A DNA stretch of 64,000 nucleotides from positions 310,001-374,000 of the forward strand of contig NC_090600.1 in assembly GCF_000497125.1 (NCBI RefSeq), in the 5' to 3' direction. Shown piece after piece: positions 36,893-59,193 of this stretch. A program made the translations under genes and the position numbers. The notes under the pieces are model-generated. The model saw only the letters and a program-made list of their open reading frames with translations. It made no database searches and had not been told where the DNA came from. The DNA comes from Spironucleus salmonicida. Its lineage: Eukaryota. Every line of letters starts with the position of its first letter. Position 1 is the first letter of the stretch.

Positions 36893-37342
36893 ATGTCATT
36901 CACTACTATGGATAGATGTTAATCTTAATGTCTCACTACCTGCTATAAGCATTTTAATTTATATCGATGTAGATATAATCTAACGTATTCTTAGCTTGTT
37001 TTTTACTTATTCTATGCAGCTATTATGTTGGTTGTCATTGGAGGAATGATTTATGCACACCATGTTTATAAGTTACGTCAAGGTTTCCGGAAGGAGAAGA
37101 ATGGGCCCTGCTGCTTCCGCTACGTGCGGGACGAGCACCGCCAGGAGATGCGCCAGGTGGTGTACGTCGAGGACGGCTACGGCAACCTCACGGAGGTCGG
37201 CCACGACTACGTCCTCGTGCCGCAGCGGACCCGCCAGCCGGAGCTGGTACCGCCGCCCCCGGCGCCCATCATGGCTGACATCCAGCCCCCGCAGGAGTAC
37301 CAGCAGCCCAAGGTGGTCCCGAACACCGCGCCGCAGTTCTGA
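36893..37342 (+). CDS. cassette gene 1, copy A: 149-aa four-Cys single-pass membrane protein
   Basis: MSFTTMDRCQSQCLTTCYKHFNLYRCRYNLTY-TM-RQGFRKEKNGPCCFRYV...PPPP tail. Confidence 0.8.
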
Positions 37343-37422
37343 GTGAGCGGGGTCGGACGGAGTGATTTCAGTTTCCACATTACACCTGCATCCCGGCCCG
37401 AAATATGCAGGTTTCCCCCGCA

Positions 37423-37431
37423 CCACAAATG
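37423..37431 (+). promoter_or_regulatory. C-rich start-proximal motif CCACAAATG
   Basis: Same motif at 37820-37828 (+) and CCACAAAATG at 38325-38334 (-). Confidence 0.5.
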
Positions 37432-37785
37432 CAAGTAGTCGCCGTCACCTGCTCCGCCTGCGGCTTCCTGTCCAACGAGAAGCCCGGCGTCGCCACCTGC
37501 GCCTTCTGCGGTTCCGCCGACGTGGCCGAGGTCCCCACCGAGGCGCCCCTCTCCCACGACAGGGAGTTCCTGGAGCTGTGCAGCGCGAAGTTCGGCAAGA
37601 GCTACGCCAGCCTCAAGCAGATCTCGGACGAGTTCGCCTTCGACGAGACCTTCATCCACCTCACCATCAAGAACGCCGAGCTGTGGCAGTACTGCCTCGA
37701 GCAGCCCACCTTCGAGGCGCTCCTGGACCTCTGCGGTGCCAACCAGCACAAGAGAGGCCCCGCGATCTGCCCCGGGCCCCAGTGA
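37429..37785 (+). CDS. cassette gene 2, copy A: small zinc-ribbon-like protein
   Basis: CSAC..CAFC pair; strong GC3 bias; CCACAAATG start; CAG-TGA stop; 118 aa. Confidence 0.7.
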   Translation: MQVVAVTCSACGFLSNEKPGVATCAFCGSADVAEVPTEAPLSHDREFLELCSAKFGKSYASLKQISDEFAFDETFIHLTIKNAELWQYCLEQPTFEALLDLCGANQHKRGPAICPGPQ

Positions 37786-37825
37786 TCTGTCTCCCCACTG
37801 ACGCGCGGTGCCCGCCACTCCACAA

Positions 37826-38032
37826 ATGGGAGCCTGCGCCCAGGACGACTTCGTCCCCGCTGCCATCATCCAGCACGAGTACGCGGCCTACGACTTCGCC
37901 CAGAACTCCGCCGCCTCCCTGGTGAGCGAGCGTCAGGCCCAGAGCCGCGCAGGACTGTCCCTGAGCATGGCACGGGCCCTGGTGGAGGAGGAGCAGCCAG
38001 ACGTCCACGCGGAGTGGGACCTAATCGAGTGA
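37826..38032 (+). CDS. cassette gene 3, copy A: 68-aa protein with MGAC N-terminus (possible acylation signal)
   Basis: CCACAAATG start, GC3 bias, GAG-TGA stop. Confidence 0.6.
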   Translation: MGACAQDDFVPAAIIQHEYAAYDFAQNSAASLVSERQAQSRAGLSLSMARALVEEEQPDVHAEWDLIE

Positions 38033-38051
38033 TATCGCCAAATAGAGAGTC

Positions 38052-38327
38052 TCACTGGTCGAACCGGCCCAGCCTCTTCAGGTAGAAGTACTGGTTCTTG
38101 ATCTACACGCGCGTCATCTCCGGGAAGTCGCTGCGCTGGATCTGCTTCAGGTCGTAGCCGTGTTTCCGCACGGAGTGCACGAGGCGCTGCTTCATCTGGA
38201 AGGTCCAGAGGTTGTAGTCCTGCCGCAAGAAGGCGTGGTGGCTAGGGACCTCCTGGTTGTGGTCTGCCATGTCGTAGACATCCTGGGTGCCGAGTATAAG
38301 GATGAGCTGGTTTATGACGCTATCCAT
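38052..38327 (-). CDS. cassette gene 4, copy A: small single-repeat Myb/SANT protein
   Basis: WTFQMKQRLVHSVRKHGYDLKQIQRSDFPEMTRVQIKNQYFYL; 91 aa. Confidence 0.7.
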
Positions 38328-39424
38328 TTTGTGGAAATGGTATCCCGATACTGCTATATAACGGGATATCGGCACTAATACCAGATTGGAACGCACTGAT
38401 AGTTCCAGCTTAATTTTTACTTTGTCCTGAATATGTGTATAATATCAGTACTGTAAGTTAGAGGTAACTTTCGAAACCATCGTATCATATGTATACCGCT
38501 AAGTATTAGTCTGTAGTTGATTCCAGATTTTGTGTTCTATATGTTTACAGCTGGCCCCGCGTGTATGCGGAACTATCTCAAAATATACAAATTCTGTCCA
38601 CTCCAATCTAGGCTCCAGAGCATAGCACGCATCCCCGCATCAAAATAACCTGTTTTTGTGGTTTACGTGTGTGGTTTAATTTAAGTTTTATGAGACAGTG
38701 TGCTGTGTTTAAGGAGCTGCAGAGGGGGGGGGCATAGTCTGACACACTAGAAGCAGCTCAGTTCAGGTTTTTGTACTTTGGAAATTTGTTTTATTGGTGG
38801 AGTAACTGATAGATGACAGCGTAAACCACATCTTATAATATATAGGAAGCCAAGTTAAAACTCAGAAAACGATTACCAATTAATATACAGCTAAATTTAG
38901 AATTTCTGTTTTAACTTTAAATACAATTGACTGCAATTATTTATATACATATAACTTTTATCTATTTTTGGGAAACTGTCTTAATCTATGTTTAAGTCCG
39001 AGATTTTATTATGTTTAAAAATTGTTTGAGTACTCTTAACCATTTTATTATTGTATAATATTCATTTAAATCAGTTTATGAGTGTTCTGAATTATATGAA
39101 AGTGCCAAGGTAAGCAGCCTTATTTCTTGTAAGAAACTTTGGACACTTAAGTCTCGACAATGGATAATCATCCTAGGAGAACCAAAATATTTTTTAATTC
39201 TAGATTAGGATCATGCGGCCAATTCCAGTAATAGCTGCAATGCAGGTGCCTTCGTATTCGTGGAGATATCTGTTGACTCGCTTGCAATGCAGCCACAAGC
39301 ACATGAGTTCACTTCATACCTGTGTATCCAATCCGTACTTGCGTGTTAAAGCATTTTAAATATTTTGTTGGGGTGGTTCGAATTTTGGTGGAAAATTAAA
39401 AATATATTCATATACCTTTACTTA

Positions 39425-40306
39425 TCACTTCTTGCCCTTCTTAATGAAGTAGTAGGCAAGGCCGCCTCCCACGGCTCCGATCACTGCCACTACGCCAACT
39501 ATGATACCAACGATGACCCCAGTGCCGGTGCTCACCTTGTCTACAACCTCAGGCTCAGCTTCAGCTTCGGCAGGCCAGCATTTAAATCCGCGCATTTCGA
39601 ACCCTGAGATGCAAATCGTGCACGACCCATCCTTATCCATCTAGTGGTTGGGCATGCAAGAGCCGCATTTCTAAGTATCTTCCGCACATGTGGCACAATT
39701 TTGAGAGTTTCCACATTTACAATCTGAGGTGAGGCCTGGGGCGCAAGCGGTAGCAGTTCCGTCCTTGCAGTACTAACCATTTGATAGAAGACTACACCTA
39801 GCTGTACAGGTTCCGTTAATTGTTGTAACGCTATCCTCGTCGCCACTGCAGAAATAGCAAAAATCTTGTGTCTCGCATGCGTCACATTGCAATTTGCAAG
39901 GCGTACATATCTTTGCTGCTACATCACAATATTGCGCCCCTTGCTCTTGTATGCATTCCTTATTGCTGTTGCATGTTTTCATACATTTGTTGGTGCTAGT
40001 GTTCAAAACGTAGCCTTCCACACATTTCTGGCAGGCGTCCTAGCTTTTGCAGTCTATGCAACCCTTCATGCATTTCTTGCAGGTATTGTCCTTCAGATAA
40101 GTGCCAGCGAAGCACGTAGTACAAAGAGGTCCATTACATTATGTACAATTATCTGTTTATTAGTTATCTGTGCAGGAACAGCCTTGACCGAAAACTATTT
40201 ACCCGGGGCATGCCAAACAATTAGCGGAAGTATCATCAGTGGCAGGGCAGTAGAAGCCAGCCTTGCATTTGTTCTCTCTCTTTTGGCAGGTTCCTGATTC
40301 CGCCAT
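39425..40306 (-). CDS. cysteine-rich membrane protein 1 (CRMP1), copy 1
   Basis: CxxC repeats, TM VIVGIIVGVVAVIGAVGGGLAYYFI, terminal KKGKK; 293 aa. Confidence 0.9.
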
Positions 40307-41770
40307 TATGGAAAGCGTAAGATTTAGTATTATAGCTCGGGATTCATTATACTACTTTTTTTAAGATTTCTCTACTATAATTAGATGTATATACTGTATT
40401 TTTGGTATAATTGAAAAATGCTACAATATTCAAATTTTAGTAACTTATATTAATAGTATATTATCCAATTGCTACTTTCAGTTATAGTAATTATACTCAG
40501 ATGAATACTTATTTTAAAAGTAAAAGGAGTTCAGATTATTTAGTTTTTGCACATTGTTAGTATTTAGTTCTTTTCATAGATGTTGGTTTTAGTTATCAAA
40601 AATATTATTGATTATGAATTGTATATAAGTATTTATTAATTTAACTAACTTAGATGTAATATTTACTTATATATTTAATATTGTATAAAGTTATTAGCTA
40701 TTAATTTACAATCTAAAGTAATCAAACAAAATAAAGTAGACAGTTTTTTTATTAAACAAAATGATTATATATTATGATTACAATAGCAAATTCTCATTTT
40801 CAAATTTATAAATTTTCATGGATTTAGTTGAAGGCTTTTATAATAAAATTGTGCGCATTTTTTTCTCATTAAATCTAAAACTTTTTCATTGAATAATAGA
40901 AATATATTTCACTTGGGTTAATGTTTAAAGACCATATCTAAATAATCCAATAAATTAACATTATATTTTTATATATTTTATAATTGTATAATAGCTTGAT
41001 TTCATCATTTATCTTTTTTAACCAGTACAGATAAATATAAACAATGTAATATTCCATTAATAGAATCCATAAGATTGTATATTATTTATTAAAGAGAGGA
41101 GCTAATTTTACTAATAAAGAATATTAATATTTTCAACATATCATCAATTATTTTATAAACTGGTTATGCCAGATAAAACTTATGACATGTTTCAAAGCTA
41201 AATTTTATAAATTATCACAATAAAATATTCTAATTAATCATATTTTTTCATTACAAACAAAGGAACTCCATAACATATTTAATCTATTCCTCACTCTGCA
41301 TCATTTTTAAAATATTTTACAAATCATTAAGTAATATGATTCATAGAACAAATAATCGTAATGGCATATTCAGATCAATTCACCTCTACTGAATGTTATA
41401 TTATATCTTCAAAACTTATCATAATAGTAAAAGATTTATAATATTTCAAGTTTTATACCAGTATAAAATAATATTGAAACATATAAAGTGAAATATTTAT
41501 AATACTTCTAAAAATAATTTAAAAAATACTATAATATCTTTAAATTTCATAATATTTTCAGTTTATTCAAGAGTAAAACAATTTAAAATGAATTCTCTTC
41601 ATCGTTCCTTAGTATAATATAATCATAATCCTAATATGATAACTCCTTTGAATAACATATTTTGCATGACTTATCTCGTCATATCTTACTATCATATACA
41701 TATAAAAGTATATTAATTAAAAATTAATTTAATATAATATATATTTATAGAAATATTTATTCCGCAAAAA

Positions 41771-44629
41771 ATGTCATTTCCGGAAGTTTAATCAACACCT
41801 GCAACAATAACATAAATTTGTTATCCAGATACTACATTCATTCAAGGAAATATAAATTAGTCAGGAGATGGTCCATGTACAGTTTAGTTTAATTCAGGAA
41901 CGCTTTTCCATGGAGCTTTACGTAATTTTCAGCTCAGTTCAAATCTTAGTATTATGGAGTCGGGGCCATCAATTATTTTATCATAATTTAACCCACTTCC
42001 ACAAGGGTAGTCTCTAATAGCATTTTCAGATGGCAGCATTTTCTAAGGTAATGTAGAAAATGGTTATGCTGTAGGGTTTGGCTCAGCATATCAAGCAACG
42101 TCAGAAATTTACTATTCTGGAAATTTCTAATCTGGTATGGCTGATGGTTTTGGTTGCGCCGTTCAGGGGGATTTTAAGGACCAAAATAATATTGAATCGG
42201 TATATTTAGGATGGTTCTAGGATGGTGAACCTCATGGACGAGGAATTTCACTTGGAATTGACGGCGAGGGTCTTACAATGTTCAACCGCTTCGAAGGCTA
42301 CTTTATTCAAGGAATCAGAAATGGCTCAGGCACTATTGTACTTGGATCAGGTGAGTGGCTTATCGGTTAATTTATTAACGATGAAAAAGATGGTGTTTTC
42401 CTTTACATTTCAGAATAGGGTGAAATTGAGCTTAGATATTATTTCAAAGACATTATGAAACTTTCGTACAAATCCGAAAACTACTACATCGACAAGCCAT
42501 AAGAGCTCAAATTTGTTGTTATGCAAAATGAAGATTCAAAAATTGAGCTTTACAATGAATATGTGGCATATTTCAAGTTTTTAGAAAGTACAAATTTGCC
42601 TGGAAAATCCTCGTAGAGCCAAAGAATTCATATAATTCCTATTATAGATACTATATGGAGATTCTGTCGACGCATCACAATACCATTAAGAGTGGGTCTT
42701 ATCACCGATTCTCGTGTTTGTACTCCTATAATTTCTGAGCAGATTGCGGAGATTGCACGAAATTTAACTAAATTAGACGTTTGTTAGGTTTTAAAATAAA
42801 CACAATAAAGCCAAGAAATGATCAACTTTTTCAAAGTCGTTGAAAGTATAAAATCGTGTATTATTGGGAACTATGAAATTTTGAAGTTTTTGTTTCAGTT
42901 TTTTAGAGCTCGAGATTTAATAACATTTGGTGAGTAAGCTAAATCAGTCTATATAAATCAGTTTCTTGAGGAAGTGGAAAAATACATTGAAGATGAACGT
43001 ATTAAAATGGTGAAAGAGGATATAATTTTACCATAATAAAACTAAATATAAACTGAGAATTCACTCATTGATAATATTCATTCTGGAGAGAATTCAATGG
43101 AATGGAAAGATACTACAAAAGTAGAAGAAACTGATGCAAACTAGACAATTACACTGGATTTAAACCACGAAACTATAGAAAATATTGTCGATTTGGTAGA
43201 AGATGCACCTTAAGCTGGTAAAATGGATAAAATTAAATCTTTATTAAAGGTATCTTAAATTTTACCTTTATCAAATTCTGGTAAAGATAATGAACTAATT
43301 AACACTGTTATCTCACTACTTGATCAAAATTTAGTGGTTTCTCATTAAAATATTAAATAAATGGTTTTTGATATTGCTGCTTTTACGGAATAATTAGACC
43401 TTATTCAGCCATAAGACGAGTTTATTGATTTATTAATCGACTAGTTTTCAAAGCAATCTGATAGTTATTAAACTACTATTTAATTCGATATTTAAACTCT
43501 TTTTTCATAGTCAATTACTGATTCTAATTTCACCCAATTTATAGCATTTTTGCTTAATCTTTATTAGGTTTTTGATCATGATAATCCAATTGTATTTATG
43601 ACTGAGGTTATTTACCCTTACGTAAAGCATAATCTGTCAAAACTTATTAAAGCACTGGAAACTGATAATTTTGCATTAAGTTTACTGTTTGATCCTACAG
43701 ATTAATTTTATATTGATATAATGAAGTAGAAATCTCAATCAAAGAAACGTAGAACTGATCTCGATGATGATAGTTAGAGTACTATTTCAAAATAATTCTC
43801 TAGTAACAGCAAGGCTAGCAAGTTCATGAGCAGCACTGGCAGCAAGGCAGCAGTTCCAAAGATTCTTTTGCGAGATGCAAGTAATATGTTGAATGAACAA
43901 GAATAGAGTATTTTTAGATGTCAAAAATTAAGTGGAAAACTGGTTAAATTAATGTAGATTAATTAAGAATATTAGTCAAAATTTGTGTTCCCATACTTAA
44001 TAAATGAAACCCTTGAAACCATAATAAATAATAAATTTGGACTTAGTATCTCATAATATTTATAATTAGATTAACTAACGTTAACTGAATTTTTATTCAA
44101 CTATTTTGAGTAGTTTAATGAAGTTTTCGGCTTCCCTAAAATTTCAGAGGAAATAGATTTTTATTTCAGAGTTTTAGGTCCATTTTTCGTTAAATTTGCA
44201 AGAGCTGATGGCTCATGGTTTTTAGAGGAAAATACTTATATAAGTGATAAAGGTCAATATCTTATTGAAAAGATACTGTCTTTCCACGTCAATCAGCAGG
44301 TGTTAACAGCTATTTTAGCATGTTGTTTATTAAAAACAGATAAAATCAATAAGTAGAAGCCGGTTGTAGATCCTAATGATACAACAGGTGATTTGGATAA
44401 TAACTCAGTTGTATCAGAAAATTCAAATGATAGTAATATGGATAGTATCAATTCTTTTAATTCATTTGCAGAAAGCGGGCATTCCACAAGAAGTCAAGCC
44501 GAATAGAAAAAGGTAGAAGGTGAGAAGCAAAAATTATTTTAGGTAGATTCAAAGAAATTCGATGAAGGAAATTGCTATAACGTAATTGGTTTGTTCTTAT
44601 AAGGTATTTTGCAGCTTTTTAATAAGTGA
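41771..44629 (+). CDS. MORN-repeat protein (possibly radial-spoke RSPH10-like)
   Basis: YSGNFQSGMADGFG, YLGWFQDGEPHGRG, FEGYFIQGIRNGSG repeats; 952 aa. Confidence 0.75.
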
Positions 44630-44652
44630 ACAATTTGTTAAATTATATGTAA

Positions 44653-46470
44653 TCACTCGTCGTTTTCTAACTCTTTAATTTTTGTTAATGACTATAAAAT
44701 TTGATCTTCCAGTTAATCTTATAAATTTAATTATTACTAATCCTACTAGCAGCTTATAATATTTGTAATCTATGGTAATATAATATGAGGTGAAGTTACT
44801 ATATTATGATTAGATATAACAGGTCCTGATGAACGCTTTCGGGATTTAATTTTTTCAATTAGCTTCATTAATTTTTATATAATTAACTCCTGCTCTACTA
44901 TATCTAGTTCACTAGAATATTTTTTTTATAATTTTCTACAAATCTACTATATGGTTTTAATCTTATTAGAAACAGAAAACGCTTTTAAAACACTTTGTAA
45001 ATCAGAACTAGAGAATGTAATACTCTACTGGGAATTTTGATTAGAAGAAAAAACTTTTTATACAATAACTGAATCCAGTGAGACAGGTAGAAATCTTTAT
45101 TAAAAATATTCCATATCTGTTTAACTGAAAATAAGTACATCTTATTTTAACTTGTTTAACTTAACTGTTTCATGGGCTTTATTATATAACTTTAATTGAA
45201 ATTGTAGTTAAGTAATCTATTACTGTATGTTATTAATTTAATCTTCGCTATAATAACTCCTATCAATATAAGGAATAATATCAATTTCATATGGAACAAC
45301 AGATGAATTTTCAATAAAAATAGTAGCCAAATCATGACATTATATTTTTGGACTAGGTAACTAAGATGCAACTCTTTGATCTGAAATCGAAATTGTTTCA
45401 TCCTCAATTCTAATATTGCTGACTTTTTATGAAAATAATAGATCAACATCATTTTACGAAATTATAAATTAGCTTTATCCTGGATTAAGTAAATTAATAG
45501 AATATATCTATCCATTTACAAAAACTTCAACCTTACCTATGTGAAGTTCTTATTAATTATAGTTAGTAAAAACTTCTTCTGCTATGAATTTATTTGATAT
45601 ATCCCAAATATTATAACAGCAAAAAAACGCGACTTCTTCATGTTTATAGCTAACTTTATCGAGAATTAAATATTTAATTTCTTCTGCTTATTCATATTTA
45701 AATGAAGAAAACGTTATGGTCAAGAATGTATTTCCATAACTTACCTGTGTATGAATGGCTTTTTCGTATTTCTAATAAGGCAAAATAGAATATATAGCAT
45801 GTTAAATAGGCCAAGTATGGCATAACTAATGTATATGGTCATAATTCTGCTACCTAATATAACTCACAGCTTCAATTTAGAGATTTTCTAAACAAAAAGG
45901 TTATGTAATAATATAACCCTATTTCCCTATATTAGCTTCAAATAATACAATTTTAAAACCATGATGAATGCCTAATATTCTAAATATTTTTTAAGATGGC
46001 AATTCTGCTTCAACAAACAGGGAAACAGAATTATTCTTGAATTCCTGAACCTTTTGTACGTTTCCTGTAAGCACTATCCCATCAGACTCAGATTCATACT
46101 AATACTCTTAAAATGGGATTATATTTGGAATATTAACATGAATAAACTGATTTTAAACATCCATACTCTCTTCCTAAAGCAGCTCTATAAAAATCTCAAC
46201 GGGACACCGAAAAAGATCTGTTATATGCACACCTTGGCACAATTAGCTAGAAACCTTTTATAGCTCCTTGACAACGATGAACTAGGCCTACTGATATGGC
46301 GAGTCGAGCGACAGCTTGAAATTGAAATACTCTAACTAGCATTTGCGTAGAATCGGAATATACTGATAAGCATACGACGACGAAGAATAAATAACCACAA
46401 CCAAATGCGTAGCCTGCGTGTACTCCTGCAGGTAGATCTGCTTCAAATCGATTTCATAATTATACCGCAT
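44653..46470 (-). CDS. hypothetical protein
   Basis: ATG 46470 and GAG-TGA in same frame; 605 aa. Confidence 0.6.
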
Positions 46471-46530
46471 TTTAAACCAAAAATACATATTATTATACAT
46501 TATATATATATTATTTTTTCCGCTTCAAAA

Positions 46531-47205
46531 ATGTTCAAAGGTTGTTTCAAGCCGAAAACGAACACACAACAAGTAGACCCCAATCTAGACCCCACCACCC
46601 TAGAATTTGACGAAAATTTCGCCAAAAACACCGCAAAAATTGACAATTTCGACGCTAAAATTTCTGAGTTCAAAACGGCCGAAAGCGCCGATTTCGAGAG
46701 CCTGAAAATGCAGTTCGAGTCGGCGCAGATCGAACTGCAGACGGCCCGCGAGACCATCAGAAGCCAGCAGCTGGACTTGGCGCAGGCCGCTGAAAATGCT
46801 GCAGAGGCACCGGTTCAGATCGATTAATTGGTGTATAATAATGACATTTTGGCAGAACAGAATTAGTAGGAAATGGAGCGGCTGCGGAGCGATAATGCAC
46901 GGCTTTAGGAGGCCGTTGCAGAGCTTCAGGCGGTTCATGAGGTTCAGGTCAACTAAAATGAGCAGGAATCGCACAATGAGCAGCTTCTGTAAGAAGGCAC
47001 GCAGAACGACTTGGAGTACACAAAAGCAAACTTGCAGCTCTCTGAGCATGCGTATGTAGCGTCTAACATCGATTCTGACATTTAGAAGACACTTTAATAC
47101 AACAATAAATCTGCGGTTAAAATTTTGCAGCTGGAGCAGCATCTGCAAGATTTAGAACATAATATGACTTGTCAGGCGGCGTTATTAGATTCTGATGACG
47201 AGTGA
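46531..47205 (+). CDS. coiled-coil protein
   Basis: MFKGCFKPK..., E/Q/L-rich heptads; GAG-TGA stop; 224 aa. Confidence 0.7.
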
Positions 47206-47337
47206 GTAGTAGGTTTTGTTCAATAGTTAAGTTAATTGTTGGTATTTAGTGGAGCTTATAATTGCAACACAAATTGTGTTATTTATACTTATATAGCATA
47301 TTCAACAAATAAATGGATAAAATTTTGCACAAATCCT

Positions 47338-48651: not shown

Positions 48652-48750
48652 TTTGTGAGAGCGGACGTGAATTGTAAATCTATATAGTAAAATATTAAAA
48701 ATTTAGATTGTAAATAAGATTCAACATTATAATGAATAATTATGTTAGCA

Positions 48751-49116
48751 TCACTCTGCTGCAATTGCGTCAATTTCGACTAAAGCATCCATGGGAAGCT
48801 TGGCAACTTCTACGCAGATTCTTGCCGGCTTATGATCGCCAAAAGCTTCAGCATAAATTGCATTTACTGCAGCAAAATCAGATATATTCTTGAGCATGAC
48901 CTGGGTCTTGGCAACCTTAGACATAGAGCTTCCAGCAACCTCTAATATACCTTTTAAGTTATTTAAGGCATTTTTGGTCTGCTCTTCAACAGTGGCGCCG
49001 AGCGCACCATCCTTTACTCCTAACTGTCCGGATACAAAGATCAAACCATTAGCCTTGCAGGCAGGAGAATAAGGACCGAGGCATTTAGCGGGAGTTTGGA
49101 TGCACTGAACTGGCAT
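48751..49116 (-). CDS. ridA: RidA/YjgF/UK114 enamine-imine deaminase
   Basis: GPYS..IFVSGQL..EQT..N..F..VN..Y..F...PAR..V..LP..LVEIDAIA; 121 aa. Confidence 0.92.
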   Translation of the reverse strand: MPVQCIQTPAKCLGPYSPACKANGLIFVSGQLGVKDGALGATVEEQTKNALNNLKGILEVAGSSMSKVAKTQVMLKNISDFAAVNAIYAEAFGDHKPARICVEVAKLPMDALVEIDAIAAE

Positions 49117-49654
49117 TTTTTGATGGAATGGCAATTTAGATTTATGGAATATTTCTTTATATATTTAATTGTTAACTAATTTTATTTGTGAATTATAAAA
49201 TCCGATGATTAATTTATTATTCAGAAAATTATATTAAATTCATCTTGCATGTACTCTTAATTAAGCACCTGGATTTTGAAAATAATATCAAACAAATATA
49301 TATAAGATTAATATTTATTTTATTCTAAATTCTAATATAATAATTTTTTATAGATATAATTATAGAGGAACTTTACTTTAAGTATATGCTTTTATTCAAT
49401 GTAATAAGTCATCTGAACATTTCCGCACTAACATTATTTTCCGTATTTTCAGCAATAAAATTTCTATTTAAAAATAATAAATATTTCATATAAATATAAT
49501 TAAGATTTAGTGTTTATTATTTTGTGGTTTGTATAATGTTTTCTTAGTTTTTATATTACTAATATATTCGTATAAACAAATTTATCTAACATAAATCGCT
49601 TTACATATATGGGGATACAATAAATTTTAAAATTTAATATTCTTGCACTTCCCT

Positions 49655-49948
49655 ATGGACTACTTGACGATTATTCATACATGCGACTCAAATGCAATGG
49701 ATTGTTTGGATTTTTCGTATCAATAACCAGTGTCTTAAAGCAAAAGCCAAACAAGCATTAAAGCACGCAAAAAAAGAGACAAGTGGTCAGTATATGAAGA
49801 AGTTTGCTTGTTGACAATTTTGTAGAAAGATGAAACTAAAACATGGCGCAAAGTAGCTGAAGAATTAAGCAAGTAAACAAAATGTCCAATGAAAACGGCA
49901 TCATAAATAAGTTAACATTGGCGTAGAGTTCTTAAACCAATATGGTGA
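49655..49948 (+). CDS. small Myb-domain protein
   Basis: KWSVYEEVCLL...TWRKVAEEL...KTASQISQHWRRVLKP, three regularly spaced Trp; 97 aa. Confidence 0.75.
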
Positions 49949-50367
49949 ACATATTCTTTATTATATCATAGAATGCTTTAAATACTTAAGTAAAGACTTT
50001 GGTATTATATCGTTAAATTTAAATTTTATTTCTTCTGACAAATAAAAAATCATCCGGAATTTTATGGAAATCAATTAAAAGAAACTACTAATATAACTTA
50101 ATATTAACTTATTCATAATTATTATGATAATTATAATTTCTTATAGATACGGTAGAGAGATATATAAACTATATTTTTTATCGTGTATATTCTTACTAAT
50201 ACTCTTAAATAATCTTTTAAATTGGACATGTGTTATGACACATAATATATAAGTAATATAACTATTATTAAAGTGAAAATTTGTTTTTGTATATATTAAT
50301 ATTATTTATTATATAAAAAATTTATATATAGAAATATAAATTAATATATAACATTAGTTTAATAAAA

Positions 50368-50817
50368 ATGACATTTTAATCACTAGCAGTGTGTTAGGGA
50401 TAGTGTCTGACTAGTTGCTATTCGTATCTCATCTATTACCGCTGTACATACAACTTAACCTACACGCAGTTGGTATTCTACCTGCTGTACGTGGGGATCC
50501 TCCTGATTTCCGTCGGCACCCTCGTGCGGGTGTACGGCACGTACAAGCGCAGGCAGGGCTTCCGGAAGGAGAAGAATGGGCCCTGCTGCTTCCGCTACGT
50601 GCGGGACGAGCACCGCTAGGAGATGCGCCAGGTGGTGTACGTCGAGGACGGCTACGGCAACCTCACGGAGGTCGGCCACGACTACGTCCTCGTGCCGCAG
50701 CGGACCCGCCAGCCGGAGCTGGTACCGCCGCCCCCGGCGCCCATCATGGCTGACATCCAGCCCCCGCAGGAGTACCAGCAGCCCAAGGTGGTCCCGAACA
50801 CCGCGCCGCAGTTCTGA
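50368..50817 (+). CDS. cassette gene 1, copy B
   Basis: MTFQSLAVCQGQCLTSCYSYLIYYRCTYNLTY-TM-shared tail; 149 aa. Confidence 0.8.
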
Positions 50818-50903
50818 GTGAGCGGGGTCGGACGGAGTGATTTCAGTTTCCACATTACACCTGCATCCCGGCCCGAAATATGCAGGTTTCCCCCGCACCA
50901 CAA

Positions 50904-51260
50904 ATGCAAGTAGTCGCCGTCACCTGCTCCGCCTGCGGCTTCCTGTCCAACGAGAAGCCCGGCGTCGCCACCTGCGCCTTCTGCGGTTCCGCCGACGTGG
51001 CCGAGGTCCCCACCGAGGCGCCCCTCTCCCACGACAGGGAGTTCCTGGAGCTGTGCAGCGCGAAGTTCGGCAAGAGCTACGCCAGCCTCAAGCAGATCTC
51101 GGACGAGTTCGCCTTCGACGAGACCTTCATCCACCTCACCATCAAGAACGCCGAGCTGTGGCAGTACTGCCTCGAGCAGCCCACCTTCGAGGCGCTCCTG
51201 GACCTCTGCGGTGCCAACCAGCACAAGAGAGGCCCCGCGATCTGCCCCGGGCCCCAGTGA
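50904..51260 (+). CDS. cassette gene 2, copy B
   Basis: Same protein as 37429-37785. Confidence 0.7.
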   Translation: MQVVAVTCSACGFLSNEKPGVATCAFCGSADVAEVPTEAPLSHDREFLELCSAKFGKSYASLKQISDEFAFDETFIHLTIKNAELWQYCLEQPTFEALLDLCGANQHKRGPAICPGPQ

Positions 51261-51300
51261 TCTGTCTCCCCACTGACGCGCGGTGCCCGCCACTCCACAA

Positions 51301-51507
51301 ATGGGAGCCTGCGCCCAGGACGACTTCGTCCCCGCTGCCATCATCCAGCACGAGTACGCGGCCTACGACTTCGCCCAGAACTCCGCCGCCTCCCTGGTGA
51401 GCGAGCGTCAGGCCCAGAGCCGCGCAGGACTGTCCCTGAGCATGGCACGGGCCCTGGTGGAGGAGGAGCAGCCGGACGTCCACGCGGAGTGGGACCTAAT
51501 CGAGTGA
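51301..51507 (+). CDS. cassette gene 3, copy B
   Basis: Same protein as 37826-38032. Confidence 0.6.
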   Translation: MGACAQDDFVPAAIIQHEYAAYDFAQNSAASLVSERQAQSRAGLSLSMARALVEEEQPDVHAEWDLIE

Positions 51508-51526
51508 TATCGCCAAATAGAGAGTC

Positions 51527-51620
51527 TCACTGGTCGAACCGGCCCAGCCTCTTCAGGTAGAAGTACTGAGTTTTAAATTACAAAAGTCATACTCAAAAAG
51601 AAAGTACTCACTATCATATA
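51527..51620 (-). pseudogene. decayed remnant of cassette Myb gene 4
   Basis: Last 13 codons and stop identical to gene 4; beyond 51568 AT-rich FLSMTF-QFKT aligns to FPEMTRVQIKN with a frameshift. Confidence 0.5.
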
Positions 51621-52125
51621 ATAATATTTGCGATTTTTAAGTAGAATCAATGTTATAAAATCTTATGAATTGAATACATGTAACTATTATATTATAATGG
51701 TATAACTAACCTTAACCATTGTTAATGTATCTAATACTTTTTATAAGAATAAATCTCTATTTTTATATTCTCTTTCTAAACTAAAATAATTTTCTGAACT
51801 AGGATTATAAGAAAATAACTTTCAGATGTAAATATCGAATAATAATTAGAATCGATTTTCTACCACTCGTAGAGTGCCTAAACTTCAGCATGTAAAACAT
51901 CAAAGACTTTAAATAGACCTTAACTTGCAGTAGGACCTTAATATTCTCTAATTAATTGGATAACCTTTTGACACATTATTATTCCCTTTAAAATCATAGG
52001 TAAAGACTCATTATTTAGATGCCGTAATTCTCAGAAGAATAAAGAAAATTAGAGAACAGCATGCTCGCACATCCTTCAAATTTATTACATAAGGAAGCAC
52101 ATCCCATTCTAACTGAACATACTGC

Positions 52126-52566
52126 ATGTACCCTAATGTCTAGAATTATCTGGGTCTTATCTTTAAAAACAATGAATTTTCTGATTAGGGTTCATTGACG
52201 GTTACCTCTGTTGATGAGAACAGACTCGCAACGTTTAGTGGAATATTTCCGAGCGCTCTTAAAATTACTGACTTGAGTACTAATTAGCTAAAAATCCTTA
52301 ACACTAATTAGATAGAAGTTATACAGGACCTCGATTTACAAACTAATTTATTTCTGGAAATACATTTTAAAAACTGCAAGAACCTTAGGAAGCTAAATAT
52401 TTTGCAAGCAATATATATTACCTCGATCTACGGTTCAATAAAATACTAGAGAATATACATCTTTATAAAACGAACAGTATCAACTTCAAACGAAAGGTTA
52501 AATAACAGAATATTGATATCTTAGCGTGAAATATCCAGTAGGAATTTGTAGAATTTGCTAGCTTGA
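52126..52566 (+). pseudogene. leucine-rich-repeat protein fragment
   Basis: LKITDLSTNQL, IQDLDLQTNLF, LRKLNI; further LRR-like YYLDLRFNK in another frame; upstream TGA interruptions. Confidence 0.45.
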
Positions 52567-52661
52567 GGCTATAGGATTATACAGATTGCACTGTAGAATA
52601 TTGATCACCAAAATATGTTAAAGAAGTCAGTTACTGAAAAATAAGTCGCAAATGAATGAAC

Positions 52662-53438
52662 TCACTCCACCATTATTTAGGTAGACTTGGATTCCATATT
52701 ATCGTAGTAAGCTAGCAAGAGGCGGTCAAATAGGTCACAGTGTGAGTATTCGAAAGTTTCATGTCCAAAGTATATTTTATTCGCATGCAGCAATCCCCTG
52801 CTAGTGCTAGTAATGAATACACAGTCCGCCGCTTAAATATCCTATATAGTGAATTTCATCCGTTTTAGATCAATACCTAGCTCTTAACATATGCTTAGTA
52901 CGGAATTTCTAACATTTCCACCAAGGACATCTTGGTCCCCAGCAGTTTAAATAGTGTTCCCCAAAATAATAAAGCAGTTACTGCTCAGACCTTCAGTTAC
53001 AAACCCATCCTAGTGCATTAAAACTTCGTCAATATCAGAGGTGATAAACTGTTCCAGACTTTGTCTTTTAACGCACCAGTTAACAGATTTTATCTACGGG
53101 TCTGCTCTCGCGGCCTCCATTAGGATAAAGTTTGAGGATAACTTTGCAGCTGGCAAGGATTCTGCAAAAAAGTCGAGATGGTTACCAACTGACATACAGT
53201 ATATTCTGATGTCGGCCGGAAAGTTCTACAGAAATACATTGGCCGCGGCCATAATCTGCTTGCACGCCATTGGGCGAGTAAGCTCCCCAGACACCAACCT
53301 GCACAGGTGCACCTCTAGCTCTGGAATCATGGTTCTTGAGAGCGTGCGCAGCGTGGTAAATGTAATGTCCTTGTACAAAGTAAGCACGTCATGCCCCTTC
53401 AACTGAGACACGGTGAGTTATCCATCTTTCAGGTACAT
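52662..53438 (-). CDS. aminotransferase class IV, copy 2
   Basis: Duplicate of 32205-32981. Confidence 0.85.
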
Positions 53439-53499
53439 TAATTAAATATACTTATATATTAAATTATCCACATCAGATTATTTATCATCTCGGTTATCT

Positions 53500-54108
53500 T
53501 CAAAGACGAGGTTACGCGCCAGAACGCAGCCGGAACGCGTCCACGGCCTCGCGCACCCCTTCATAGTTCAAGTCCTTTCCGTGCCTGAAAAACTACCGAA
53601 ACAGGCACTCGAAGCTCTTGAACATGCTCCGGAGCACTTCCACCTCAGCTTTTCGCTCCAACTCCTCGCAAATCCGCGCCATTTGCAGCGATTCAAGTAC
53701 GAAACTGGAAAGGAGCGGTACCGTTTTTGGAGTGGAACTGGGCATTCTAACCGAGTTGACGGCGATGAGCTCCTTTTGAATTTGCTGTTTTTAGTTTTGC
53801 AGTCGCTAAATCTCGATCTTCAGCACCTTGTTTTCGGTGGCCAGCGAGGTCAAGAAGGCGCTAATTTCCTGTATTTCTTGCGATTGAAAATAAGGGGCTG
53901 AGTGGGGAGAATCGAGCGGTTGCTGCTAGTTGAGGTTGAAAAACCGAATTGTAGCGATGGCCTCGGAAATGCTGAACAGCTCTGGTTCTGGCATGGACGT
54001 AACCTGATAAATCTTTTTAATCGATTCGGTAATGAGCGATACCTAATTTGACCTGGCAGCTAAAATTCTGGCCTGATCGGAGAGCGGCAGGAGCGGTAGC
54101 ATGTCCAT
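53500..54108 (-). CDS. hypothetical coiled-coil protein, copy 2
   Basis: Duplicate of 33043-33651. Confidence 0.65.
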
Positions 54109-54162
54109 TTGTATTCTTTTTATATTTATATATAAATGTGATACTATAGCCACTTCAATAAA

Positions 54163-55983
54163 ATGGATCTTTTGAAATAAGCGAATGATTTGGTCTAGGT
54201 AGTGAAGTCTGGCGCATGCGCCAAACCGATCTATGCGGATGAAGTTAATTTTATGTGCGACACCTGCGCTGGCTCCACCTCGGTTTTCTGCCCTTCGTGC
54301 TTCTACAACGGAGATCACCTAAATCACGATTACAGACTATCAATGAACTTGGTGGGACTCTGTGATTGTGGCGATGAGTCTTCGTATATTTAAGAATCTT
54401 GTTGTTCAAACCATCCTCTAGTATAAGTTAGCATTTTTGATGGTGTAACTTTCGATTCGTTTTCAGAAGTATTCGACTTGCTGGTTTAGTTCTAAAGTTT
54501 CTTGCAAGAGCCTTAAGAAGATCAAACTCGATAGATTTACGATATGTGTGAGCAGTCCCCTATACTTCTTAGGATTATAGTTTTCACTCTGTTTTTCCAA
54601 AAGTAGCAGAAATAATTTTTGTTCAATAATATTAATAACATTGATATTCTCCTAGACGTAATAAATTAGAATAACTTTGCGAACCATCTTCTAGTTAAGC
54701 TTGAAAGTTTTGTTTTTGTAGATTTGCTAACGTAGGACTTCTATTTCCGCGTGTTCTCAGTGTTACTGTTCTCCCATAATTTAGAACAATTGATAATATG
54801 GCCGAACAGAGCAATTTAGATGATGTCAGTTTAAATCCTAACGGAACCAAAAACATAAATTTATGTTGCACAATTCAAAATTTATTCTAGGTTACTCAGA
54901 TTTATGAGAGAAAAAATATAGCTTAAAAGCTAGCTGGACGGGAAACTTCTACAGGTGACAGATCTGTTCTACCAGTTTCAGTAAATATCACAGCCACACC
55001 AAGTCAAGTACCTATTTATCTACGATCATGAGCTTTTTGAAGAAATCTTGAGGTTTCATGAGGTAGTAAACTTCTATGGGAAGATTAACCCAGATGACTG
55101 TGGGGAGAACTTCAATACGTTTTTATAGGAGGTTAATATTTATGTATATTACATTAAATTTATCATAGGACCGTTTTACGCGATTTGCAACTACTCAGAC
55201 TTAGAGATCGGTAGTACAGATGTAATTTTAAGCAGGTAACATATAAAAGGGGACGTCCGAAGCTAGTGTAGCATTAATACTAATTTCTACTAATCTGTAA
55301 ATTTTTAACTAGCGGTCGAGATGGTAAGTGTTCAAATTAAGTTTAGCTAAATGCAAACAAACTACTTCTTGCTTTTCCCATAATAGTTTATATAAATTTT
55401 TATTACTAACTAGATTTATAGACTAAACCTAGACAAAGCAGAATATTTTAGCATGTTGGCATCTAAGTTAAATATACCGTTAACCGATTTAATAGACCAA
55501 CTTCTCCAGGATCCATATATTTTCTTAATTTTCAAATAGCAAATTCTATCATAGACATGCTTTAAGAAACATATCTATGAGCTTGGCATAGCAGTTAACT
55601 TTTGCGCTAATGACTCATTTTTTAGCAACCACTGGTTCAAAATAGTTAACTTCGTCCAATTTGCTATTCCTTTAGCCGGTAAAAACTACTTCAAGGATAA
55701 CAACTTGATTAAGCTAGAAATCCTGAATTAGATTCTATTTAATATCAATATTCTTGACGAGGAGCTATTTTTGCGAATTTTCTTATCTCTACAGTTCGTC
55801 TAAATATAGGATGCAAAATTATCAGGAATTTTGGATAAAACCGGGTTCAGACGCAATCTTGTCTTAGATGCTGCCAGAGAAATATTCAATACTGAACCTA
55901 ACCCAAAAAAGCTTAAATCAGCAGTAGTCAAACTAAAAACTTCTTCGTTCGTTGAGCCTTCGATGATATAGACTCTATGTTGA
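54163..55983 (+). pseudogene. 3'-truncated UBR-box E3 ligase copy lacking the RING
   Basis: Matches 33706 gene to ...VEPSM, then IQTLC-TGA; 606 aa. Confidence 0.75.
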
Positions 55984-56046
55984 ATACATCAAAGTATAGG
56001 GGAATTATAGTATATTTATTTTTTGGGTGTAAGGATGGCATAGCCT

Positions 56047-56916
56047 TGGGCGCAGGCTCCCATTTGTGGAGTGGCGGGCACCGCGCGTCAGTGGGGAGAC
56101 AGATCACTGGGGCCCGGGGCAGATCGCGGGGCCTCTCTTGTGCTGGTTGGCACCGCAGAGGTCCAGGAGCGCCTCGAAGGTGGGCTGCTCGAGGCAGTAC
56201 TGCCACAGCTCGGCGTTCTTGATGGTGAGGTGGATGAAGGTCTCGTCGAAGGCGAACTCGTCCGAGATCTGCTTGAGGCTGGCGTAGCTCTTGCCGAACT
56301 TCGCGCTGCACAGCTCCAGGAACTCCCTGTCGTGGGAGAGGGGCGCCTCGGTGGGGACCTCGGCCACGTCGGCGGAACCGCAGAAGGCGCAGGTGGCGAC
56401 GCCGGGCTTCTCGTTGGACAGGAAGCCGCAGGCGGAGCAGGTGACGGCGACTACTTGCATTTGTGGTGCGGGGGAAACCTGCATATTTCGGGCCGGGATG
56501 CAGGTGTAATGTGGAAACTGAAATCACTCCGTCCGACCCCGCTCACTCAGAACTGCGGCGCGGTGTTCGGGACCACCTTGGGCTGCTGGTACTCCTGCGG
56601 GGGCTGGATGTCAGCCATGATGGGCGCCGGGGGCGGCGGTACCAGCTCCGGCTGGCGGGTCCGCTGCGGCACGAGGACGTAGTCGTGGCCGACCTCCGTG
56701 AGGTTGCCGTAGCCGTCCTCGACGTACACCACCTGGCGCATCTCCTAGCGGTGCTCGTCCCGCACGTAGCGGAAGCAGCAGGGCCCATTCTTCTCCTTCC
56801 GGAAGCCCTGCCTGCGCTTGTACGTGCCGTACACCCGCACGAGGGTGCCGACGGAAATCAGGAGGATCCCCACGTACAGCAGGTAGAATACCAGCTGCGT
56901 GTAGGTTAAGTTGTAT
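56047..56916. repeat. GC-rich cassette tract C (inverted)
   Basis: Reverse complement of 50448-51317. Confidence 0.92.
56104..56460 (-). CDS. cassette gene 2, copy C
   Basis: Same protein as 37429-37785. Confidence 0.7.
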   Translation of the reverse strand: MQVVAVTCSACGFLSNEKPGVATCAFCGSADVAEVPTEAPLSHDREFLELCSAKFGKSYASLKQISDEFAFDETFIHLTIKNAELWQYCLEQPTFEALLDLCGANQHKRGPAICPGPQ

Positions 56917-56996
56917 CTACATCCATAAAAAGGAGTTTATTAAAAGCAATATGTAAGGCATTGCAATTGGCACCTACTTATTGAAGCAAATGACAT
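56547..56996 (-). CDS. cassette gene 1, copy C
   Basis: MSFASISRCQLQCLTYCFQQTPFYGCRYNLTY-TM-shared tail; 149 aa. Confidence 0.8.
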
Positions 56997-58016
56997 TTTT
57001 TATTCTATTTTTATCAATATAGATAAAGGATTTTATTCAATATATACATATAATCATTATTCAATTATATTAGTTCATACCATTATCTAATATCAAATAA
57101 ACAAGTATACGACTATAGTTTCTATAATATACTAAATAAAAATAAATAAATATTAAATTTATATAGTTTTTGCCGATTCTTTATATTTGAAAATTAAAGA
57201 AAAAGTTAAATAATTGTATAAATAAGTATTCCTTTTTAAATTTTAAAAAATCAATTTGTATAAAAAATTCACTAGACCATTCTTTAAATCTCATAACCGA
57301 TTAACAACACATATAATTAATATAAATATATTATTTATGTAACCTTCTGTGGAAACTCTAATTTACTGCTACGATATTAAATTAACAATAAATAAAATAT
57401 TTAATATAAATGAAATATGACTAATATTCATTATTCAACATTTTTGATAATTTTGTTATTTTATAAACTTGATAGGTATAATATTAAAATATGTAATATT
57501 AATAAATAAAATATAAATATGTAAAGCTACTACTTTCTCAAGCATAATAATATGTGATAAAATAAGATAAACTATCAATTAAAGTTGATAATTTTGTAAA
57601 GATAGTCTCTATGTATGGTTCCCCAGAAAATAAAATAAGTACTGCTCATTAATATTATATAAAATTATTATATTGTATCTAATATTTTATATTGATAAAG
57701 CTATTTATTAAGGAAAGAATGACACTTTAATAACTTTATAATTTTTATTAACATATATAATTAGCATCTAGTGTTATATATAAATAATTAAATATTTTTA
57801 ATATAGTTCTAAGTAAGTTCTTAAAAATATGAGTAAAATAATAATCATATGGTATTTAGAAAATGTAGATGTTAAACGTTAGACTTCGGTTATTTTTCTT
57901 GTCTCGTTAATAGAAAATAATTTTTTCATATATATTTTATATAAACAAAAACAAAGAGAGTATATACGATTTGTGTTAACAATTACAATAGTATCTGCAC
58001 TAATTTATGATTTATA

Positions 58017-58484
58017 ATGAATTATTTAGCAAAAATAATATGTTCATCTATAGAAAGATGTCAATCTTTCTATATTACTAGTTGTTATTAAAACTTTCCA
58101 TATTATCGATGGTAGCATAATATTCTAGTTACTTAGCATTCACGATATCTTGTTTATGTTGCAATTTTATTAATATATATTGGTAGCTTAATTCAGACAT
58201 ATAGTATCTATAGACTCAGGCAGGGCTTCCGGAAGGAGAAGAATGGGCCCTGCTGCTTCCGCTACGTGCGGGACGAGCACCGCCAGGAGATGCGCCAGGT
58301 GGTGTACGTCGAGGACGGCTACGGCAACCTCACGGAGGTCGGCCACGACTACGTCCTCGTGCCGCAGCGGACCCGCCAGCCGGAGCTGGTACCGCCGCCC
58401 CCGGCGCCCATCATGGCTGACATCCAGCCCCCGCAGGAGTACCAGCAGCCCAAGGTGGTCCCGAACACCGCGCCGCAGTTCTGA
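58017..58484 (+). CDS. cassette gene 1, copy D (degenerate N-terminus)
   Basis: Homologous start position 58035 is ATA, in-frame ATG at 58017; ERCQSFYITSCYQNFPYYRWQHN has lost Cys2 and Cys4; shared tail intact. Confidence 0.55.
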
Positions 58485-58570
58485 GTGAGCGGGGTCGGAC
58501 GGAGTGATTTCAGTTTCCACATTACACCTGCATCCCGGCCCGAAATATGCAGGTTTCCCCCGCACCACAA

Positions 58571-58927
58571 ATGCAAGTAGTCGCCGTCACCTGCTCCGCC
58601 TGCGGCTTCCTGTCCAACGAGAAGCCCGGCGTCGCCACCTGCGCCTTCTGCGGTTCCGCCGACGTGGCCGAGGTCCCCACCGAGGCGCCCCTCTCCCACG
58701 ACAGGGAGTTCCTGGAGCTGTGCAGCGCGAAGTTCGGCAAGAGCTACGCCAGCCTCAAGCAGATCTCGGACGAGTTCGCCTTCGACGAGACCTTCATCCA
58801 CCTCACCATCAAGAACGCCGAGCTGTGGCAGTACTGCCTCGAGCAGCCCACCTTCGAGGCGCTCCTGGACCTCTGCGGTGCCAACCAGCACAAGAGAGGC
58901 CCCGCGATCTGCCCCGGGCCCCAGTGA
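58571..58927 (+). CDS. cassette gene 2, copy D
   Basis: Same protein as 37429-37785. Confidence 0.7.
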   Translation: MQVVAVTCSACGFLSNEKPGVATCAFCGSADVAEVPTEAPLSHDREFLELCSAKFGKSYASLKQISDEFAFDETFIHLTIKNAELWQYCLEQPTFEALLDLCGANQHKRGPAICPGPQ

Positions 58928-58967
58928 TCTGTCTCCCCACTGACGCGCGGTGCCCGCCACTCCACAA

Positions 58968-59174
58968 ATGGGAGCCTGCGCCCAGGACGACTTCGTCCCC
59001 GCTGCCATCATCCAGCACGAGTACGCGGCCTACGACTTCGCCCAGAACTCCGCCGCCTCCCTGGTGAGCGAGCGTCAGGCCCAGAGCCGCGCAGGACTGT
59101 CCCTGAGCATGGCACGGGCCCTGGTGGAGGAGGAGCAGCCGGACGTCCACGCGGAGTGGGACCTAATCGAGTGA
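58968..59174 (+). CDS. cassette gene 3, copy D
   Basis: Same protein as 37826-38032. Confidence 0.6.
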   Translation: MGACAQDDFVPAAIIQHEYAAYDFAQNSAASLVSERQAQSRAGLSLSMARALVEEEQPDVHAEWDLIE

Positions 59175-59193
59175 TATCGCCAAATAGAGAGTC

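Follow-up and report, generated by a model that had tools for sequence, protein, structure and literature searches.

The stretch of Spironucleus salmonicida DNA analysed here covers 64,000 nucleotides (NCBI RefSeq assembly GCF_000497125.1, contig NC_090600.1, positions 310,001 to 374,000 of the forward strand; the window below, numbered from its first letter) and is a duplication-prone part of a 1.73-Mb chromosome. Self-BLASTN comparison of the window reveals three repeat families: a tract present in four copies, A to D, and the two pairs E1/E2 and G1/G2. The tract is of particular concern, since its four copies all begin in frame inside a small gene, gene 1, and are nearly identical to one another from that point on, with four diverged gene 1 heads lying upstream. 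The gene 1 protein, of 149–155 amino acids, consists of a cysteine-rich head, a single transmembrane helix and a proline-rich tail, the head having an NLT site; as shown in Table 1, the tail is followed by up to three further small genes (genes 2, 3 and 4) and, in A and D, by a spacer and a CRMP1-type gene for a cysteine-rich membrane protein (CRMP). Clear coding regions of the window contain in-frame TAA and TAG codons, and the window was therefore read with both codons as glutamine (code 6); a reading with table 11 was rejected, as it left only fragments open and placed in-frame TAA and TAG in coding sequence. Codon-position GC content marks all four small genes as coding, with GC content at third codon positions (GC3) of 0.88–0.94, against 0.25–0.64 in the other genes of the window. 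The mean GC content of the window is 34%, its intergenic DNA being AT-rich and its genes GC-richer; a mean intergenic GC content of 25.4% has been published (PMC3916229).

Table 1. Positions of the tract copies, their genes and the neighbouring features in the window.
Feature	Position	Strand	Content or remarks
Tract copy A	37085..40605	+	gene 1 tail, gene 2, gene 3, gene 4 (-), AT-rich spacer, CRMP1 (-)
Tract copy B	50448..51568	+	gene 1 GC-rich transmembrane segment and tail, genes 2 and 3, last 13 codons of gene 4
Tract copy C (inverted)	56047..56916	-	gene 1 GC-rich transmembrane segment and tail, gene 2, first 6 codons of gene 3
Tract copy D	58217..61749	+	content as A; 5' junction 10 nt further upstream than that of A
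Gene 1 copy A	36893..37342	+	149 aa; GC3 of head/transmembrane segment/tail 0.28/0.27/0.94; code 6 translation
Gene 1 copy B	50368..50817	+	149 aa; GC3 0.44/0.86/0.97
Gene 1 copy C	56547..56996	-	149 aa; GC3 0.24/0.86/0.97
Gene 1 copy D	58017..58484	+	155 aa; GC3 0.08/0.22/0.97
Old gene 1 paralogue F	11970..12416	-	GC-rich throughout, GC3 0.87; about 31% identical to A-D; fifth, diverged member in the window
Gene 2	37405..37785	+	126 aa; CxxC...CxxC zinc-ribbon-like orphan; GC by codon position 0.60/0.45/0.93
Gene 2, identical copies	50880-51260; 56104-56484 (-); 58547-58927		
Gene 3	37826..38032	+	68 aa orphan; GC3 0.88; copies 51301-51507 and 58968-59174; 6 codons left in C
Gene 4	38052..38327	-	91 aa, weakly Myb/SANT-like; one TAG read as Q; GC3 0.91; second copy 59194-59469
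CRMP1-type cysteine-rich membrane protein gene	39425..40306	-	passenger of the A/D tract; second copy 60569-61450; GC3 0.50, the usual composition
AT-rich filler	55967..56046		80 bp, separating E2 from the remnant of gene 3 in C
Duplication E1 (source copy)	31834..35509	+	class IV aminotransferase gene, coiled-coil gene, first ~601 codons of the 966-aa UBR-box gene
Duplication E2 (derived copy)	52291..55966	+	between B and inverted C; UBR-box gene truncated

Identity among the four copies is 99.6–100%, over tract lengths of 870, 1121 and about 3530 nt. By self-BLASTN, A and D agree at 99.6% over 3529 nt (37079–40605 with 58221–61749), with 12 differences, one of which lies within the GC-rich core; A matches B at 50554–51568 (1015 nt) and inverted C at 56810–56047 (764 nt), and B matches inverted C over 875 nt (50443–51317 with 56921–56047). 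A run of G residues at 38717–38725 in A and 59860–59870 in D differs in length by 2 nt, which is either real slippage or an assembly homopolymer error. A four-way alignment resolves the 5' junctions to the base: the identity of B and C starts at the YNLT codons (50448/56916) and shows 2 differences over the next 875 nt; D agrees with B and C from 58217 onwards, and A from 37085. In the 10 nt between the junctions of D and A, A differs at 5 of 10 positions, all of them in the R-Q-G codons, and the four in-frame starts thus fall at three different codons. The maximum chi-square method places the breakpoints at aligned nucleotides 192 (A), 182 (D) and 75 (B vs C), and the mosaic is significant in 6 of 6 pairs, none of 1000 column permutations reaching the observed value; to the left of the junctions there are 37–94 differences in 75–192 sites, and to the right 0–2 in 758–875. 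At 37142, the sole informative site within the tail, A pairs with D and B with C.

The heads upstream of these junctions are old homologues. Their ungapped, in-register nucleotide identity is 0.495–0.548, compared with 0.26–0.30 in shuffled sequences, and none of 2000 shuffles reaches the observed value in any of the 6 pairs; when the alignment is offset by 1–6 nt in either direction, identity is only 0.18–0.34, and register zero alone stands out. At the protein level the heads give Smith-Waterman z scores of 9–28. Stringent local DNA alignment is insensitive for sequences of this kind (the 75-nt heads give z 0.1–4.6, the transmembrane segments −0.4 to 0.6) and was replaced by the in-register identity and protein tests. 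Since the proportion of synonymous differences (pS) is 0.74–0.98, that is, saturated, while the proportion of non-synonymous differences (pN) is 0.31–0.38, the heads are old and have evolved as coding sequence. The heads of B and C are among the least alike (0.51–0.53), yet the two genes are 98–100% identical from codon 27; the tails are too alike for a tree. The 300 nt upstream of the four gene 1 start codons show no homology (z −1.0 to 0.3 in 6 of 6 pairs). As a side observation, two of the conserved cysteines are missing from the head of copy D (58017–58216), as are the NLT site and the start codon at the aligned position, and an upstream ATG is used; this head, which has the lowest GC3, may be decaying despite the intact shared tail.

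The original prediction for this locus, made by a model from the letters of the sequence, had proposed that gene conversion over old paralogues, rather than insertion, produced the staggered intragenic tract ends. Its junction and 3' end coordinates were reproduced to the base by self-BLASTN and the four-way alignment. Its description of the upstream heads as aligning in register at low identity and low GC content agrees with the values above and in Table 1 (identity 0.495–0.548, GC3 0.08–0.44), and the stagger of the 5' starts is recovered by the maximum chi-square breakpoints, with the qualification that A and D are staggered by only 10 nt. The homology outside the tracts on which that proposal depended does exist, and it is confined to the gene 1 heads. 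The absence of terminal repeats and target-site duplications, which had also been pointed out, holds for all six copies compared, E1 and E2 included: terminal inverted identity amounts to 7–17 of 40 nt, with no terminal inverted repeats (TIRs), and flanking direct matches do not exceed 4 nt, with no target-site duplications (TSDs). A Pfam scan of 17 candidate proteins from the window found no transposase, integrase or reverse-transcriptase domain.

At the 3' side the situation is different, because homology to the other copies ceases there altogether. The tract of C stops 17 nt inside gene 3, at 56047, cutting it after the six codons for MGACAQ; the tract of B ends at 51568 and leaves only the last 13 codons of gene 4; the tracts of A and D end at 40605 and 61749, 299 nt beyond the start codon of CRMP1. 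The 500 nt beyond the four 3' ends have no residual homology to one another (z −1.1 to 0.9, 6 of 6 pairs), and the flanks of B and C bear no likeness to what follows in A (z −0.6 and −1.5), nor is there a collinear match at low stringency. A longer comparison of the B flank with the continuation in A (z 2.2, reached by 13 of 300 shuffles) was rejected, since all it comprised was a scatter of low-complexity, AT-rich stretches matching on either strand. About 20 codons upstream of the junction in B, stop codons interrupt the frame of gene 4, and neither an open frame nor homology carries on past 51568. In C, the 3' end is 80 bp from the end of E2, which itself truncates the UBR-box gene; the AT-rich filler in between has no source within the window, its best match being 16 nt. 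The tracts are therefore bounded by diverged homology on the 5' side only. Gene conversion within old paralogous loci is defined by diverged homology on both sides, and with none at the 3' ends the events do not fall under this definition, whereas one junction in homology, the other outside it and copying on the kilobase scale are what one-ended copying would leave.

Meanwhile, base composition changes at the same junctions. GC3 is 0.08–0.44 in the heads, 0.22–0.27 in the transmembrane segments of A and D, 0.86 in those of B and C, and 0.94–0.97 in the shared tail, and the step from 0.08–0.44 to 0.86–0.97 sits exactly at each junction. The GC-rich block spans the sequence from the junction to the gene 4 start codon, its GC content being 66% where there are four copies (the core), 64% where there are three and 57% in the rest of gene 4, and it includes two core spacers, 102 nt in total and of 56% and 68% GC as compared with the published intergenic mean of 25.4%. 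Beyond gene 4 the A/D tract is of ordinary composition: the spacer has 35% GC, CRMP1 47% and the tract end 23%. It has been reported that a minority of S. salmonicida genes, located in GC-rich regions, have GC content at synonymous third positions (GC3s) near 1, that neither mutation nor selection easily accounts for this pattern, and that the S. barkhanus orthologues do not share it (PMC1805757, PMC2874811). It has also been reported that duplications at ≥95% identity make up 19.2% of the S. salmonicida genome and that duplicated regions have 44.7% GC compared with 30.7% elsewhere (PMC9509377). Translational selection is an unlikely cause of the high GC3, because the highly expressed genes of S. 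salmonicida are described as centring on GC3s of about 0.4 (PMC1805757) and the core spacers are GC-rich as well.

Searches for further members of the gene 1 family bear on what was replaced. A family hidden Markov model (HMM) was built from A–D, F and three database relatives and run over all 1226 six-frame fragments of the window; it matched A, B, C, D and F only, the next best fragment having E 0.007. The old tails were therefore replaced and not pushed aside. A possible gene 1 relic beyond the end of D, at 62041–62214 (tblastn E 0.003 under lenient settings), was rejected, as the family HMM did not recover it. A word-indexed protein search with gene 1 returned three clusters only, all encoded by the window, and on this evidence the word-indexed database appears to hold no further annotated copy with the gene 1 tail. 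Searched with a profile, 1.84 billion representatives yielded 8 hits at E ≤0.001, including a near-copy of F, two short relatives and SS50377_24751, a hypothetical protein of S. salmonicida. SS50377_24751 aligns with B from end to end at 37% identity (E 2e-28) and has the same PNTAPQF terminus; as judged from this alignment, it shows the appearance of an unconverted, full-length diverged member, and that the tail is part of the ancestral architecture. As for F, a database protein, P0005, matches it save for a frame-shifted stretch near the C-terminus and could be either a second copy or an older assembly version.

The two other repeat families did not figure in the original prediction, although E2 lies between B and inverted C. 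E1 and E2 are 99.8% identical over 3676 nt by self-BLASTN; at E1 the UBR-box gene runs on intact to 36606. The seven differences are unevenly spread, with 1 in 3428 interior sites and 6 in the last 248 (Fisher P 6e-7), a pattern that suggests an older duplication whose interior has been re-homogenised. Similarly, G1 (24359–25770) matches inverted G2 (63690–62279) over 1412 nt at 98.1% by self-BLASTN and contains a CRMP/VSP-like gene; there is 1 difference in the 652 sites at 24375–25026 and then 20 in the 744 sites at 25027–25770 (Fisher P 6e-5). The high identity of G1 and G2 begins a few codons past the start codon and ends near the stop codon. By their distribution of differences, the mosaics of E1/E2 and G1/G2 show layered exchange and speak for ongoing homogenisation in the region. 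The duplication edge in the UBR-box gene (33706–36606) is the site of a second, weaker within-gene composition step: GC3 is 0.41 in the duplicated part (247/601) and 0.26 in the unique part (94/365; Fisher P 1e-6), while first positions are alike and second-position GC goes the opposite way, 0.24 in the duplicated part vs 0.36 in the unique part (P 7e-5); protein composition also shifts along this gene. In addition, B and C are 875-bp inverted repeats 4.7 kb apart (50443–51317 and 56047–56921) that flank E2 in a palindrome-like unit, which could flip by recombination, and G1 and G2, likewise inverted repeats and separated by 36.5 kb, could invert everything in between.

From these observations we infer, with a probability of roughly 0.6, that the locus was formed by repeated one-ended copying initiated in homology, of the kind known as break-induced replication (BIR), with later homogenisation, in a duplication-prone region. 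Homologous recombination is required by the in-frame position of the 5' junctions within old homology, and insertion at unrelated sites is thereby excluded. The proposed course starts from an old family of small genes for single-pass membrane proteins, local to this stretch and represented by gene 1. A broken or stalled end in one gene 1 paralogue would have invaded another at a conserved part of the gene; copying would then have proceeded rightwards for 0.9–3.5 kb and ended without homology, as in BIR or template switching, and it would have been repeated at least 3–4 times, with a different start codon and stopping point each time. Ordinary conversion within the shared sequence would since have held the copies at ≥99.6% identity. 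At four members of the family, the rear of gene 1 has been swapped for a cassette of extreme GC3 in which three small genes follow the gene 1 tail. The extents of the copies agree with several events: B and C reach furthest on the 5' side and least far on the 3' side, A and D the reverse, and D has donor-type bases that are absent from A. Since no surviving copy covers the union of the tracts, at least 3–4 events or a lost donor are needed, and no present copy can have been the sole donor. Metamonads are reported to be without Ku-dependent end joining, and parasitic diplomonads without alternative end joining as well (PMC8516963), a lack that makes paralogue-templated repair plausible. With respect to the original prediction, the repeated copying that it had assumed is thus upheld, and the GC-richness that it had ascribed to the donor is observed in the copied sequence; its conversion over old paralogues is supported on the 5' side, where the old heads are homologous, and not on the 3' side, where nothing homologous follows; and of the two mechanisms that it had named, segmental conversion and break-induced replication, BIR fits better than conversion with two ends.

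Several points weigh against one-ended copying of this kind. The non-homologous 3' ends could equally be later deletions or insertions in duplicates that were once complete, and the A-vs-D stagger of 10 nt could be the product of patchy mismatch repair in a single event. With end joining reported to be lacking (PMC8516963), the sealing of a one-ended copy at a non-homologous site is unexplained. The excess of A/D differences beyond the core, 11 in 2275 sites vs 1 in 1246 core sites, is marginal (binomial P 0.04, Fisher P 0.07). Copying of a GC-rich donor into AT-rich recipients would give the same GC step with or without any bias in conversion. The junctions are known from assembled sequence alone, and one genome window cannot by itself show donor and recipient, the order of events or non-reciprocity.

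Among the other explanations, classical two-ended interlocus gene conversion would have four old loci, each with the whole cassette of genes 1–4, overwritten by tracts of differing length. That the 5' junctions fall in old homology suits such conversion, as do the old AT-rich paralogue of gene 4 at 1589–1870 and the faint gene 4 likeness of the five codons just past the end of B (LQFKT vs VQIKN); it is nevertheless improbable, given that homology stops at every 3' end, that the gene 4 frame of B meets stops, that in C the 80-bp filler and a truncated unrelated gene take the place of gene 3 after 6 codons, and that neither gene 2 nor gene 3 has a diverged homologue in the window at E <0.02. One or two larger block duplications followed by rearrangement are also unlikely. 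Under such a history E1 and A, for example, were copied as a unit to give E2 and D, the chimeric gene 1 copies arose by unequal crossing-over between paralogues in direct or inverted orientation, and the 3' ends by later deletions or by inversions between the B/C or G1/G2 arms. The order and orientation are indeed the same at both loci (E1 then A, E2 then D), the divergences are similar (7/3676 for E and 12/3529 for the tract), and the inverted repeats B/C, 4.7 kb apart, or G1/G2, 36.5 kb apart, could drive inversions. The interval between E2 and D, however, is not a copy of 35510–37084 but an inverted tract copy with two unique old heads; simple unequal crossing-over would have duplicated the whole interval between paralogues, which is not seen; and the GC-rich transmembrane segment of B and C is absent from A and D, so that B and C do not derive from the present A or D.

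It is very unlikely that the pattern is an assembly or polishing artefact, with repeats collapsed, chimerically joined or homogenised by short reads. The published assembly is described as short-read polished, with only its two largest duplications checked by hand (PMC9509377), and one of the A/D differences is the 2-nt change in the G run at 38717–38725; against this, the repeats, at 0.9–3.7 kb, are far shorter than long reads, four distinct in-frame heads with their own upstream regions are hard to produce by error, and copy-specific variants persist. A mobile GC-rich cassette targeting gene 1, whether a transposon, an integrase-driven element or foreign DNA, is suggested by the sharp GC contrast (66% vs 34% in the whole window) and by the orphan status of genes 2 and 3. 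This idea is largely refuted: the tract has no TIR, TSD or mobility gene, its three different 5' junctions are all in frame with homologous sequence, genes 1 and 4 belong to native families and gene 4 uses TAG as a sense codon, and a 2007 survey is cited as arguing that the high-GC3 genes of S. salmonicida are mostly not recent transfers (PMC1805757).

As to the source of the GC-richness, the candidate that we favour is GC-biased conversion acting on recurrently exchanged sequence. A bolder extension, which we regard as possible but doubtful, is that the GC3-near-1 genes and GC-rich islands of S. salmonicida as a whole were made and spread by strongly GC-biased ectopic recombination, in an organism that reportedly has no end joining and would therefore mend breaks from paralogues; if this were true, the window would have caught GC-biased recombination at codon resolution, GC3 rising from about 0.2 to about 0.95 where the copying of a paralogue began. 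The GC3 step at junctions in intact frames links the extreme-GC3 class of genes to duplicated and exchanged sequence. The tract resembles the GC-rich duplications described for S. salmonicida (PMC9509377, PMC1805757, PMC2874811) in its GC3 of 0.88–0.97 against a background of about 0.2–0.4 and in its position near CRMP genes. It differs from what those genome-scale papers present in that the step is codon-resolved within single open reading frames (ORFs) and located at recombination junctions; the open-access full text of the literature yielded no report of codon-resolved GC3 steps at junctions in diplomonads.

The locus is a well-resolved instance of known processes, namely ectopic recombination and segmental duplication among paralogues, and it may be set beside several such systems. 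Interlocus (ectopic) gene conversion, or concerted evolution, leaves dispersed paralogues with sharp identity boundaries. Near-identical tracts in anciently diverged homologues, a significant mosaic, and edges more diverged than interiors in E and G are features of this kind, whereas here homology flanks the tracts on one side only, with truncated genes and unrelated sequence on the other. BIR and microhomology-mediated template switching yield complex segmental duplications. The homologous junction at one end, kilobase copying, an inverted segment, a short filler, a duplicated block nearby (E2) and non-homologous far ends are all reminiscent of them, but the events here are fixed in a genome and were not watched as they happened. 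As with GC-biased conversion in multigene families, the enrichment is confined to exchanged sequence, affecting third positions and the short core spacers; unlike in those families, the two-copy part of A and D beyond gene 4 is ordinary, at 23–47% GC. Segmental conversion in antigenic variation similarly makes chimeric surface-protein genes by copying within a family, and the neighbourhood here is CRMP/VSP-like; the difference is that in the present case it is the invariant tail that is copied and the variable heads that stay, that there is no sign of an expression site or a silent archive, and that CRMP1 is only a passenger.

That paralogues recombine is nothing unusual, and the authors of the genome have already suspected gene conversion in the vicinity of CRMP genes (PMC9509377). 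What the locus adds is a case resolved to the base, in which one pasted tail is shared by four old genes, starts at three different points and stops, without homology, at three, and in which the copying appears recurrent and largely one-ended. The case may inform how a fish parasite without end joining reshapes the neighbourhoods of its surface-protein genes.

Genes 2 and 3 of the tract are orphans. Genes 1–3 matched no Pfam family in the scan of 17 proteins, and the protein search with gene 2 returned only its own record. Structural look-alikes of gene 2 in the Atlas all had scores <0.8 and TM-scores <0.5 and provide zinc-ribbon leads only. A supposed old AT-rich version of the cassette at 1.5–4.5 kb was rejected, as its gene 2 match at 3884–4291 was reached by 2 of 500 shuffles with 60 comparisons made and had a BLASTP E of 0.58. 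The Pfam match of gene 4, to Myb_DNA-bind_7 (E 0.0012), is below the curated cut-off; the paralogue at 1589–1870 is AT-rich (GC3 0.27) and 33% identical to gene 4 over 94 aligned positions, and gene 4 is therefore considered to belong to a native family. The translation of the CRMP1 gene ends in a transmembrane helix followed by KKGKK, and the protein has the architecture by which the CRMP1 family is defined, that is, an ectodomain rich in cysteine, a transmembrane helix at the C-terminus and then a short basic tail (PMC9509377). It resembles the product of the VSP-like gene at 24361–25821, in which the same scan detected a Giardia VSP-type cysteine-rich protein (E 4e-16); CRMP1 itself had no Pfam hit. 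Protein kinases, an L-PSP endoribonuclease, a class IV aminotransferase and a UBR-box protein were also detected.

No tRNA genes and no Rfam matches were found in the window, and no RNA gene marks the junctions; at 30000–64000 the tandem repeats are trivial AT-rich ones only, with no array at the junctions. A separate GC-rich island lies at 11300–12420, with 48–71% GC in 100-nt windows, and ends abruptly at about 12400, where GC falls to 17%; it contains the old gene 1 paralogue F together with a convergent ORF of 208 aa (GC3 0.72).

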